NCBI GenBank assembly: GCA_000165345.1
Contig: CM000436.1
Location: 1,248,001-1,312,000, forward strand
Reading direction: 5' to 3'
Length of the DNA stretch: 64,000 nucleotides
A program made the translations under genes and the position numbers. A model generated the notes under the pieces. It was given only the letters and a program-made list of their open reading frames with translations, was not told the DNA's origin and did no database searches. Every line of letters starts with the position of its first letter. Position 1 is the stretch's first letter. Below are positions 19,169 to 22,833 of the stretch, piece after piece.

Positions 19169-19627
19169 ATGAGCGAACAATCTAATGTACAAGCAGTGCA
19201 ACCAGAACAACAAACACAACAGATTGCAGGAGCACAAGCTCAGATTGGAATGAATGCAGGAGTAGCATCTGCAGGTGTACCGTACAGTTCCGGTATGGGC
19301 CAAAATATGGTATTCCAATCTATGGCAGGAGGAAGTGGTTATTTCTTCCCTCCAAATGGTTCAGCCCCAATGAGTATGGGAAGTGGAGCATTTGCAAGTG
19401 TCGGAATGCCAGGAATGTATGAACTCGACCCAAATATGCTTTCAGGTGGCTATTCTGCTCCTTATGGCTCCGCTATGGGAAGTAGCTTCTATCTTCCAAA
19501 TCAATATGGAGGTTCAGGAGTTATGACAATGCCATATACTTATGATCCTTATGGCTTGATCAACCCAGGAATTATTCCTCCAGTTGCAACAAAGATAGCT
19601 AAGAAGAAGAGATCAGGATGCTGCTAA
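19169..19627 (+). CDS. Hypothetical Gly/Ser/Met/Tyr-rich low-complexity protein ending in polybasic KKKRSGCC
   Basis: 152-aa ATG ORF. The N-terminus is Gln/Ala-rich, the body is G/S/M/Y-rich, and the C-terminus is ...IAKKKRSGCC-stop. This resembles a Rab-type double-Cys lipidation tail, but there is no GTPase domain. Confidence 0.4.
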   Translation: MSEQSNVQAVQPEQQTQQIAGAQAQIGMNAGVASAGVPYSSGMGQNMVFQSMAGGSGYFFPPNGSAPMSMGSGAFASVGMPGMYELDPNMLSGGYSAPYGSAMGSSFYLPNQYGGSGVMTMPYTYDPYGLINPGIIPPVATKIAKKKRSGCC

Positions 19628-19739: not shown

Positions 19740-20226
19740 CTACTGTAAAAGTAACCTTCTTGCTGCTTGTCTGACTCTTACATCAAATGAAGGTGTCAAT
19801 ATTGGCTGATTTGCCTCTTGGAAAGGATTCATTAGGATTTTTACGTACAAATCTCTAACCTCATTAAAAAATTGTCTTATATTCTCACTGCTCTTGCCAT
19901 GATGTAGAAGTAGAAACTTTGTGTGTCCTGGTGTTACAAATGCCGAAATCTGGGTATCTCCAAGCTTATAAATTGTTCTCATATACCTGAAATAAAAGTT
20001 TAATCAAACAAATTTTTCTATTTTCTCAAATCTAATAAACTTACAATGCTGAATTTCTCCAAGTATTCTCATCCAATGCATCCAATGAAGCATGAATCAA
20101 TAACTCGTCGGCGCAACCATTCGATCCTATTTTCCCTGTGTTATTAGACAAATCTACTTCATATAGGGGAGAGTCATTTCTTCCCACTATTGTAAATATC
20201 AAACAATCCTGATTTGTATGTATCAT
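19740..20226 (-). CDS. TRAPPC2: Sedlin / TRAPPC2 (Trs20) TRAPP complex subunit. Two exons, 20045..20226 and 19740..19986, with intron 19987..20044.
   Basis: Track ORFs 20041..20226 (CLIFTIVGRNDSPLYEVDLS...ADELLIHASLDALDENTWRNSA) and 19740..19982 (ISAFVTPGHTKFLLLHHGKSSENIRQFFNEVRDLYVKILMNPF) align with human sedlin. The matching human segments are FYFVIVGHHDNPVFEMEF...HAALDLVDENMW and VSAFVTAGHMRFIMLHD...FFTDVYDLYIKFSMNPF. They join in frame through a 58-nt GTAAGT..TTTCAG intron, giving a 142-aa product. Confidence 0.75.
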
Positions 20227-20389
20227 AACTACAAATTGATTGCCTAACCATCAATTAATTAATTAGTTAATATTTCAAATAGCCCGCCAAAATTGACAGA
20301 AATATTTAGACTTGAAAATAAAAAAAAATCAAGATTCAAATAAAAAGTTTTAAAAAATCATTTATTCAGATGTCTATAGGCCTTACCAA

Positions 20390-21688
20390 TTAACTTTGGA
20401 AATATTCTTCACTGAAAATATCCATTTCAACAGAATGTTTGGACCTTTCAGGGTGCCAAACAATATAACCATTTCTGTGGGGTCCTTTTTTGAGGTTGTC
20501 AAAGTATTCACCTAAATTAATTTGTAAACTTGTTCTTTTATTAAAAATTTTACACCGTTGAAACTTACCTTCTCTAATGCAAATCCTCTTCCTAGTAATG
20601 GGGTCCTTATAAGTAGCAACGCATTCTCGATCTTGACCGTACTCCTGAGGCAGTCTATTATAAGAGGAGCTATCAAATGCAACGTTTAATGTAGGATCAA
20701 CCCTTGTTTTGGAATAGATTTCCTCTATGATTATATTTAAGATATTTTTGTATTATTTAAATGAAGTTAACTTTTTTATAATTACTTGAAGCTTACCATA
20801 TGTGAGGCACTCTGGGTCTATATCGGATCTAAACCAATAACAATTAGCATTTACATCATAAAAGTATGCCAAATGGTTTGCATCTGAAGCTTTATAGTGG
20901 ATTCTCTTTCTATTATTGTTTCTTAGATGATACTTATACACTTTTCTATCAAGGTCTGGAAGAATTTAATTGTTATTAGTTGTTAAAAATAATAACTTAC
21001 ACTCTAATTCATCTATAACAGGGTATATTCCCATTCTTTCTGCTTCAATAGGAGATTCAACTTTTCTAATTACTAGAATATAATTATTTATTGTTTTTTA
21101 AAAACTAGTTTGAATAAACATACATTCGTGATTAATTTCAGCCTCTGTACTATTAGAATGCATCTTCTCATATTCCAACATCTTCTTCACAATCATTTTG
21201 TTTACATTGTCTTTCCTGGATTTATGTCCTTGTTTAGGTGGCTTTATAAATTCTTTATAAGCCTCTTGATTTCTAGTTGGTGTTAATAAAGTTAAATTAT
21301 TAGACTCTTTGGCAACCTATTTTAAACGAGTTGCCAAGCTATTATTAATTTACCTTCTTCTCGTCTTTTCTATTTCGCTAAACTCCTCTTTCTGTCTCTG
21401 AAATTCCTTATAATGACTAGGATCTAAATCCCTCTTATTATGATACTCTTCAACTTTGTATATATTTTCCTTTAAAGATGGAGAGTCATACCCAATAATT
21501 GCCTTTTCTGGTAAATAATAAGGATAATTTGTGAGATCAGAGAAATTTGGATAATTATTAGTGTTTATTTGGCTAAGAACATCCTTAGCTGAGCCATAAA
21601 TCTGAGATTTTACGCCATTTAAATGAACTAGTAATACTATAAATAACAAACTTAAAGACTCAACCATAAACTTTCTGAACTTGAGCAT
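20390..21688 (-). CDS. Hypothetical secreted protein with signal peptide and no recognised domain. Six-exon model: 21354..21688, 21124..21272, 21001..21072, 20797..20955, 20569..20724, 20390..20511.
   Basis: Exon 1 is track ORF 21350..21688; its ATG is followed by the signal peptide MLKFRKFMVESLSLLFIVLLVHLNG. Five in-frame introns of 45-81 nt have GTAAAT/GTATGT/GTAAGT/GTAAGC donors and YAG acceptors. Exon 4 overlaps track ORF 20753..20941 in the same frame. The predicted product is about 327 aa and ends ...GYIVWHPERSKHSVEMDIFSEEYFQS. Confidence 0.45.
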
Positions 21689-21912
21689 TTTTTAAGACTT
21701 ACTAATTTCTTAATCGCAGCTTAATTTTCCTTAATCGACCAAGGTTTAGGCTTAATGTGGACTAATTTTACAAAAATCCGAGCATCCTGCATTGTCTGGT
21801 ATTGATAGTCAAATGCATGCAAACTTGGAAATCAGCAATTTTTGCGAACTAAAAAATTACCAGGAATTTAAAGTTGTTCATAGAAAAAAGTTTAAAGTTA
21901 TTATAATTATAA

Positions 21913-22833
21913 ATGAAGGAAACACAAGATGAATCAAAAATGTGGTCTGGAACGCGTAATAATGATTTTGAAATATCACCAGAAATAAAAGAACAAAGTC
22001 AAACTTTGAGCCAGCAAAAACATTCAAAAAGAGTTAAGAACTGTCTGACTTACTTGTTAGTTGCAGCTTTTACAACTATTGCTCTGATTTTAATCTTTGT
22101 AATTTTTGACAAAAATGGAAGAAATCCTATCCAGGTTTATTTCCAAGGTGTTTTCCCCTCAAAATCTGGTGAAAGAGAGATATTCAATCCAAGCTTACAG
22201 AAAGTAGCTGATGGGCACAGCTTTATGGAGAAGAGTGTGACTTCTGAATACGATAATGGTTCTGAAAAGAGTAATAAAATTGCTCATACTTATGATTCTG
22301 GGCATTATCAATCAGTATTAGAATTATATATGAATAGGCTCTTTGTTACTCCTTTGAATAAGATGAGTTTAACAGTCCCAATTAATGATCAAGTACTTAG
22401 AAGTTATCAAGTTGAAGCCATTGATTATTCAATAGATGATGAAATGATTTTGTATCTTTCTTTAGAACACCAACTTAAAATAAATAATGAAACTATGGTT
22501 TTATATGATAAATCCATGAATGTTATTAGCCATTTTCCAACTTATGAAGATGAAGAAGGTACCGAAAAGAAGAATATCAAACAAGGATCAAATAACCAGA
22601 AAAGTAGTAATACAGAAAATAAGCTCAGAAACAATGAGAATAAAAGACATTTACAGCAATTACAACAGCATGAATACTATAACTATACATCTACATCGGA
22701 ATGGAATCATAAGCCAGAAGTTGTTAATAATATTATTCCAACATATTATCCTAGGAATCCTTATGTTCCACCATATGGAAATCCTTATTATTTTGCCCCA
22801 AATATACTAGTTCCTTATGTATATATTTATTAA
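21913..22833 (+). CDS. Hypothetical type-II (signal-anchor) membrane protein
   Basis: 306-aa ATG ORF. A single TM lies at residues about 45-65 (LTYLLVAAFTTIALILIFVIF) after a charged N-terminus. The luminal part is N/Q-rich, and the C-terminus is P/Y-rich (NPYVPPYGNPYYFAPNILVPYVYIY). Confidence 0.4.
   Translation: MKETQDESKMWSGTRNNDFEISPEIKEQSQTLSQQKHSKRVKNCLTYLLVAAFTTIALILIFVIFDKNGRNPIQVYFQGVFPSKSGEREIFNPSLQKVADGHSFMEKSVTSEYDNGSEKSNKIAHTYDSGHYQSVLELYMNRLFVTPLNKMSLTVPINDQVLRSYQVEAIDYSIDDEMILYLSLEHQLKINNETMVLYDKSMNVISHFPTYEDEEGTEKKNIKQGSNNQKSSNTENKLRNNENKRHLQQLQQHEYYNYTSTSEWNHKPEVVNNIIPTYYPRNPYVPPYGNPYYFAPNILVPYVYIY

Follow-up and report, generated by a model that had tools for sequence, protein, structure and literature searches.

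The window analysed here, a stretch of 64,000 nucleotides (nt) from chromosome 8 of Cryptosporidium parvum (assembly GCA_000165345.1, contig CM000436.1, positions 1,248,001 to 1,312,000 of the forward strand), carries on its minus strand, at 21688..20390 in window coordinates, the protein-coding gene cgd8_5080 (CPATCC_0005350), which consists of six exons. The original prediction for this locus, made from the sequence alone, had linked two listed open reading frames (ORFs) on the minus strand, 21350..21688 (112 amino acids) and 20753..20941 (62 amino acids), with further fragments into a spliced gene for a secreted protein of about 327 amino acids. Both ORFs are present, and three-frame translation placed every coding piece in a single minus-strand frame, with stop codons between the pieces. 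Excision of the five introns in silico yielded a coding sequence of 993 nt, which stays open across all proposed junctions and ends with a TAA codon at 20392-20390 (Table 1). The spliced product is continuous as proposed and contains the two peptides quoted for it, YHLRNNNRKRIHYKASD and GYIVWHPERS, only its length needing correction to 330 amino acids. The introns were likewise found in the proposed size range of 45 to 81 nt and with canonical sites, all five having GTAAA, GTATG or GTAAG as donors and TAG or CAG as acceptors. For intron 1, the nearest AG at 21317 was tried as an alternative acceptor, but the resulting 37-nt intron broke the frame and led to immediate stops, while the acceptor at 21273 restored the frame. 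The G+C content was 16-28% in the introns and 31-40% in the exons, compared to 31% for the whole window, and the intron values agree with the mean of 22% reported for C. parvum introns (PMC4637869).

Table 1. Features of the cgd8_5080 locus and its neighbourhood, in window coordinates.
Feature	Position	Strand	Description
Exon 1	21354..21688	-	335 nt, ATG at 21688; codons 1-28 (21605-21688) predicted to encode a signal peptide or signal anchor
Intron 1	21273..21353	-	81 nt, GTAAAT...CTAG, phase 2
Exon 2	21124..21272	-	149 nt, within charged Lys/Glu/Arg-rich region, helix predicted
Intron 2	21073..21123	-	51 nt, GTATGT...CTAG
Exon 3	21001..21072	-	72 nt
Intron 3	20956..21000	-	45 nt, GTAAGT...TTCTTCCAG
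Exon 4	20797..20955	-	159 nt; start of conserved C-terminal domain (residue 186 on); Cys224, Cys235; RIHY...NHLAYFYD...NCYW motif
Intron 4	20725..20796	-	72 nt, GTAAGC...CATAG
Exon 5	20569..20724	-	156 nt, top conservation; EEIYxKTRVDPTxNVAFDSSSY..LPQEYG.D.ECVATYKDP..R.R.CI; Cys273, Cys287
Intron 5	20512..20568	-	57 nt, GTAAGT...TTTAG
Exon 6	20390..20511	-	122 nt including TAA stop; GEYFDNLKKGP.RNG..VWHPERSKHS.EMD.FSE.YFQS
cgd8_5090	21913..22833	+	306 amino acids; internal transmembrane segment or signal anchor at about residues 46-66
Divergent intergenic region cgd8_5080/cgd8_5090	21689..21912		224 bp
TGCATGCA palindrome	21814..21821		in the 224-bp intergenic region
ATGCTCGG	21778..21785		in the 224-bp intergenic region
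cgd8_5070 (Sedlin/TRAPPC2)	19740..20226	-	two exons, one 58-nt intron GTAAGT...TTTCAG, 142 amino acids
TTTGGCGGG-type box	20283..20291		between cgd8_5080 stop and Sedlin ATG
cgd8_5060	19169..19627	+	152-amino-acid low-complexity ORF

To assign the locus to annotated genes, we compared it with C. hominis, whose DNA is 97.9% identical to the window over 6.7 kb. Four flanking proteins showed identities of 0.951, 0.977, 0.990 and 0.993 to their C. hominis counterparts, which are the values published for cgd8_5110, cgd8_5100, cgd8_5090 and cgd8_5060 (supplement of PMC4637869). Because the flanking identities match this table, the Sedlin gene is cgd8_5070 and the spliced gene is cgd8_5080, and the order of genes reads DHHC palmitoyltransferase, cgd8_5060, Sedlin, cgd8_5080, cgd8_5090, cgd8_5100, cgd8_5110 and a kinase. 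A look-up of the exact protein sequence matched all 330 residues to two database entries, QOY40276.1 (CPATCC_004385 / CPATCC_0005350) of the IOWA-ATCC annotation and WRK34274.1 (cpbgf_8005080) of the BGF annotation, and the 330-amino-acid protein CTYZ_00000550 of C. tyzzeri falls into the same cluster as the C. parvum entries. The six-exon, five-intron model is consequently a residue-for-residue match to these current, evidence-based C. parvum annotations, with which the comparative data presented below agree independently. Both the observation and its interpretation were correct, and both the gene with its exact model and the listing of its product under a proteomic class (see below) were already known. 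The database entries for cgd8_5080 are named just "uncharacterized" or "hypothetical protein".

Most other public models of the gene are wrong in some respect. The 2004 model of strain Iowa II (XP_627388.1) comprises exon 1 only (112 amino acids), and a variant of 325 amino acids (CPHLJ_8g5080, CPCDC_8g5080) uses an intron 3 acceptor AG at 20942-20941, 15 nt downstream and inside exon 4. We prefer the form of 330 amino acids because the shorter variant drops the residues YLDRK, which every species retains as part of its coding sequence. Among the ortholog models, P0001, P0002, P0003, P0007 and P0015 are affected by retention of intron 2 or 5, skipping of exon 3, mis-splicing of exon 4 or the use of another intron 4 donor: intron 2 is kept in the C. 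meleagridis model P0001, exon 3 is omitted from the C. hominis model P0002, and intron 5 is kept in both P0002 and P0015. The models from C. ubiquitum (P0004), C. bovis (P0005), C. ryanae (P0006) and the chipmunk genotype I (P0022) are fused to Sedlin. Proteomic or expression look-ups relying on such models will under-detect the protein, and the re-spliced alignment of eight orthologs described below corrects them. The introns of the IOWA-ATCC (CpIA) annotation are 100% supported by RNA-seq according to its authors (PMC8744675).

The gene had been described as unusually intron-dense, which is fair in view of the approximately 10.8% of C. parvum genes that contain introns and the mean of 2.6 exons in those genes, but not in the sense of unprecedented, because the intron-containing genes range from 2 to 10 exons (2015 re-annotation, PMC4637869). 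Six exons in 1.3 kb are in the upper tail yet inside the known range of the species, whose introns have an average length of about 99 nt (PMC4637869). The genes nearby are not all intronless either, as the Sedlin gene contains one intron of 58 nt; the DHHC gene is longer on the DNA than its coding sequence requires.

All five C. parvum intron lengths (81, 51, 45, 72 and 57 nt) are divisible by three, and with all pieces in one frame the locus could resemble an ORF that has acquired stop mutations. We considered the possibility of a pseudogene in decay or of ORF fragments lined up by chance, with exon 1 as the only true gene, as in the original annotation with its single ORF of 112 amino acids. 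We compared the loci of C. bovis, C. canis, C. hominis, C. meleagridis, C. ryanae, C. felis, C. ubiquitum and C. muris, re-deriving the splice sites by maximising the similarity to the protein from the window. Synteny is kept at all eight orthologous loci, and the five junctions occupy matching columns of the alignment in C. hominis, C. meleagridis, C. ubiquitum, C. canis, C. felis, C. bovis and C. ryanae as well as in the gastric species C. muris, so that the same five intron positions are found in nine Cryptosporidium species. The introns themselves differ widely in length: they measure 71, 61, 62, 71 and 59 nt in C. felis, none of which is divisible by three, 79, 50, 42, 67 and 60 nt in C. 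canis, and 214, 126, 128, 105 and 194 nt in C. bovis. Already in C. hominis, intron 2 has 50 nt, which puts exon 3 into another frame. As the exons lie in different frames in other species, the conserved protein can be obtained only by splicing.

In the alignment of the eight re-spliced proteins, no junction carried a gap and the mean column identity was 76%; the spliced protein is 53-97% identical across the eight species and most conserved in exons 4-6, and the stop codon after the conserved ...YFQS end is kept in all eight. Identity to C. ubiquitum reached 81-89% in the exons versus 65-72% in the introns, and in C. hominis and C. meleagridis, the species closest to C. parvum, indels are confined to the introns. 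The published ratio of non-synonymous to synonymous substitution rates (dN/dS) of cgd8_5080 versus C. hominis is 0.198 (supplement of PMC4637869), and the gene is present in a gene list derived from proteomics. The agreement with the five-junction model, including the restriction of frame-shifting indels to the introns, is far beyond chance. The frame differences, the conserved junctions and the protein alignment rule out a pseudogene or chance ORF chain, to which we assign a negligible probability. The five introns occur throughout the genus and are ancient, having persisted in a genome which shed most of its others. Shared by intestinal and gastric Cryptosporidium species in a setting where about 90% of the genes are intronless, they make a tidy case for work on how introns are kept or lost.

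Intron 5 of C. parvum does not contain an in-frame stop codon, and a retained copy would be read as an in-frame insertion of 19 amino acids. We nevertheless regard it as a real intron because its length is 59 nt in C. felis and 194 nt in C. bovis and because it contains a stop in C. meleagridis. As a side observation, nonsense-mediated decay could not detect the 19-amino-acid insertion if the intron were retained in C. parvum. Over the eight species, which are not independent of each other, 23 of 40 intron lengths are divisible by three. A further observation concerns the C-terminus in the gastric species, where the annotated proteins of C. muris and C. andersoni terminate with ...NYILIT or ...NYILTS. 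The C. serpentis model P0011 contains the conserved C-terminal peptide DIFSQEYLRA, which in the C. muris DNA is encoded in another frame, at about 1270-1440 of the gene region; this change of frame could stem from an additional intron, a frameshift or an error in the assembly.

The fused models from C. ubiquitum, C. bovis, C. ryanae and the chipmunk genotype I raise the alternative that the gene is longer and continues into Sedlin/TRAPPC2, either as a fused gene or as a polycistronic unit. These four models join both genes and carry the Sedlin family PF04628, both genes are on the same strand with 163 bp between them, and C. parvum has been proposed to form polycistronic transcripts (bioRxiv 10.1101/2025.01.17.633476). 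However, the joined models extend into Sedlin only at the expense of the conserved last exon, which they omit or alter and whose stop codon after ...YFQS is kept in eight species, and Sedlin retains its own ATG. The spacer between the two genes, which varies from 102 to 408 bp, contains the same or a near-identical TTTGGCGGG-type box in eight species, and this box resembles the E2F-like motif that is frequent upstream of Cryptosporidium genes. Its conservation argues that Sedlin has a promoter of its own. Moreover, two separate genes are annotated in C. parvum, C. hominis, C. meleagridis, C. canis and C. felis, and the authors of the CpIA annotation warn that overlapping RNA-seq reads yield false joins of adjacent genes on the same strand (PMC8744675). 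With the conserved stop ahead of the spacer and a window protein that lacks any Pfam match, we rejected the fusion as very improbable: cgd8_5080 and Sedlin are two genes. For the cgd8_5070 products of C. parvum and C. hominis, the published table gives an identity of 100% (PMC4637869).

The protein encoded by cgd8_5080 is very likely a member of the secretory pathway, as judged from its N-terminus. Its lone hydrophobic stretch covers residues 7-27, where it follows a basic n-region and precedes the sequence V-K-S↓Q, and the Kyte-Doolittle profile reaches its maximum only at residues 6-30. Neither a later transmembrane segment nor a KDEL/HDEL motif or a hydrophobic C-terminus was found in the 330 amino acids. 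Such an N-terminal signal sequence would take the product into the endoplasmic reticulum (ER), and V-K-S↓Q is a putative cleavage site; the original description of the protein as secreted is plausible. Alternatively, the segment may act as an uncleaved signal anchor and turn the product into a type II membrane protein instead of a soluble secreted one. This would fit the long h-region of about 20 residues, an AlphaFold2 model in which residues 2-24 form one helix, the sole part with a predicted local distance difference test (pLDDT) score of about 80, the UniRef name "integral membrane protein" of the C. meleagridis ortholog and the internal transmembrane segment of the neighbour cgd8_5090 at residues 46-66. 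On the other hand, the segment begins at residue 7, right after the short basic n-region, the species of the intestinal clade retain its small-residue motif in the form (V/A)-x-(S/P)↓Q, and the C. canis ortholog is called a signal peptide-containing protein in UniRef. We consider the signal anchor improbable.

The mature protein would consist of 302 residues with four cysteines (1.3%) and two N-x-S/T sites. It is rich in tyrosine and histidine, as had been noticed, with 8.9% Tyr versus 3.7% and 3.6% His versus 1.8% in a background of 8,869 residues from neighbouring ORFs. Residues 90-175 are charged and predicted to be helical, and residues 186-330, encoded by exons 4-6, represent a conserved Tyr-rich core, of which the part from 239 to 330 is near-invariant. 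All four cysteines and 16 of the 27 tyrosines are invariant in eight species, and the four cysteines of the C-terminal domain probably form two disulfides. The tyrosines are placed in this conserved, probably folded four-cysteine domain and in an N-terminal YPYY motif, not in a low-complexity stretch.

Assignment of the protein to a family had not succeeded from the sequence alone, and our searches confirmed its isolated position. An initial protein search retrieved matches from Cryptosporidium only, and we obtained no Pfam family at E<=10 for the 330-amino-acid product and no PDB chain at E<=10 using a profile of eight sequences. A hit to DUF7195 in the C. serpentis ortholog was discarded as sub-threshold noise (E = 0.026 in Pfam). 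We then performed an exhaustive HMMER search of 1.84 billion representative sequences with a profile of database sequences, for which a check with hmmbuild had confirmed that the Sedlin columns were kept out. It returned five proteins, four of them from Cryptosporidium or Cryptosporidium-like (including C. muris) and one 419-amino-acid protein, P0010; no coccidian protein was found at E<=1e-3 among these representatives. When P0010 was included to broaden the profile, a second search of the word-indexed type added nothing to the known set.

P0010 is the sole relative from outside the named Cryptosporidium species and stems from the Logan assembly of SRR28036161, where it is encoded on a contig of 1,696 nt with 43% G+C. 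It resembles the cgd8_5080 product at E = 3.5e-4 in the exhaustive search and with an hhalign probability of 95% over 91 columns, and it keeps the four cysteines, the R.HY, CYW and DPT..VA.D motifs and the overall layout. It differs in having just 22% identity overall, a long unrelated C-terminal extension and an ORF that is uninterrupted on its contig, which could reflect either a cDNA or an intronless gene. The AlphaFold model suggested for the spliced protein was run twice with AlphaFold2, but mean pLDDT scores of 35.9 with 6 sequences and 43.6 with 13 sequences made both models unusable for any meaningful fold comparison.

Upstream of cgd8_5080, the divergently oriented gene cgd8_5090 codes for a protein without Pfam match, whose C-terminus is rich in tyrosine and proline (12 Tyr and 9 Pro in the final 60 residues). 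Its transcript level in females exceeds that of asexual stages by 5.6 log2-fold, and its product was detected in an enriched oocyst-wall proteome. The 224 bp between the two start codons are presumed to act as a bidirectional promoter, from which cgd8_5080 would probably be transcribed in common with cgd8_5090. Candidates for common elements in this region are the palindrome TGCATGCA, which is conserved in seven of nine species, and ATGCTCGG, whose ATGCTCG core is found in eight of nine species including C. muris. On the other side of the locus, beyond Sedlin and adjoining the DHHC palmitoyltransferase gene cgd8_5050, lies cgd8_5060, which codes for a Gly/Ser/Met/Pro/Gln-rich protein without Pfam match that ends with a basic stretch and two cysteines (...KIAKKKRSGCC); this terminus may represent a lipidation motif.

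A possible function is suggested by a gene set called oocyst_wall_LOPIT, which comprises 44 genes and includes both cgd8_5080-RA and cgd8_5090-RA. Several of its entries, for example cgd6_2090, are known genes of Cryptosporidium oocyst wall proteins (COWPs). The set is contained in the analysis code of PMC10233709, and the gene sets used there were derived from the hyperLOPIT spatial proteome of C. parvum, according to the methods of that paper. The wall candidates identified by hyperLOPIT extend beyond the COWPs (PMC12548878). cgd8_5080 itself is named in the main text of no paper and was not found in the supplements of the COWP paper. On the basis of the one published gene list, we tentatively propose, with a confidence slightly below an even balance, that the cgd8_5080 product belongs to the oocyst wall, though not as a COWP, or to material found in the same fractions. 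The secretory pathway would carry it there while the oocyst forms, possibly alongside the cgd8_5090 product. For the full account, an annotated six-exon gene with a secretory, oocyst-wall-associated product, our confidence is moderate, the gene structure by itself being nearly certain.

Several points weigh against this account. The wall assignment depends on a gene list that forms part of supplementary code. The RNA support for its introns is second-hand, coming from a general statement on the whole annotation. The gene is also missing from the 2022 oocyst-wall proteome and from the sheet on differential expression in females versus asexual stages (Tandel et al. 2019), which includes the neighbours cgd8_5050 and cgd8_5090 and proceeds directly from cgd8_5060 to cgd8_5090. 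Both absences may be explained by the exon-1-only model of 112 amino acids which may have been in use at the time, and the gap in the expression sheet is accordingly weak evidence. With 1.3% cysteine, the protein is not Cys-rich like the COWPs, and because C. parvum oocyst walls have been reported to lack dityrosine (PMC3760245), its richness in tyrosine cannot simply be read as that of a cross-linking substrate. Finally, residues 239-330 are near-invariant across the genus, as is seen more typically in an enzyme or binding partner under constraint than in a protein forming the bulk of a wall.

The last point leads to a different role for the same gene and the same secretory entry, namely that of a conserved factor (for example an enzyme, a chaperone or a cargo receptor) in the lumen of the secretory pathway or of an organelle of the sporozoite, which merely co-fractionates with the wall. 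Between C. parvum and species such as C. bovis and C. ryanae, the C-terminal 90 residues hardly vary, and structural or exposed proteins do not usually behave in this way; the low dN/dS value versus C. hominis and the absence of the gene from the expression list and the enriched-wall proteome point in the same direction. Conserved His, Asp and Glu residues in WHPERSKHS, VDPT and FDSSSY could furthermore make up an active or metal-binding site. Yet the protein lacks an ER-retention motif and showed no homology to any enzyme family in the Pfam, PDB or exhaustive searches, and the hyperLOPIT-derived set groups it with wall proteins. Housekeeping factors of the secretory pathway are also normally conserved past one genus, which does not apply to cgd8_5080. 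We regard a lumenal factor as unlikely, although it deserves consideration, and favour an association with the oocyst wall.

As a genus-restricted and strongly conserved non-COWP member of the hyperLOPIT-derived wall gene set, the protein would be a sensible target of tagging or knockout experiments on transmission-stage biology. More speculatively, cgd8_5080, with or without the Tyr/Pro-rich cgd8_5090, might be the founder of an unrecognised, lineage-restricted class of non-COWP wall proteins built on a Tyr-rich four-cysteine domain and involved in a Tyr-based or lipid-associated wall chemistry, its introns perhaps being kept for regulation by splicing, such as the in-frame retention of intron 5; we rate this extended proposal as improbable.

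Compared to the known wall proteins, cgd8_5080 shares a predicted signal peptide, the absence of a transmembrane domain downstream of it and the listing in the hyperLOPIT-derived oocyst wall set with COWP1-9. The COWPs are built from arrays of Cys-rich repeats with one cysteine per 10-12 residues (PMC12548878), whereas the mature cgd8_5080 product contains four cysteines in 302 residues and did not show similarity to a COWP in any search. We rejected its membership in the COWP family, given that tandem Cys-rich repeats are lacking and no COWP is among its homologs. A second comparison is offered by the coccidian precursors of the GAM56/GAM82 type from Eimeria and the Tyr-rich wall proteins of Toxoplasma, with which cgd8_5080 has in common that it is secretory, Tyr-rich and wall-associated in proteomic data. 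It differs from them in the lack of sequence homology in the exhaustive search and in belonging to a genus whose walls are reported to be free of dityrosine (PMC3760245), and its tyrosines are placed in a conserved, probably folded domain.

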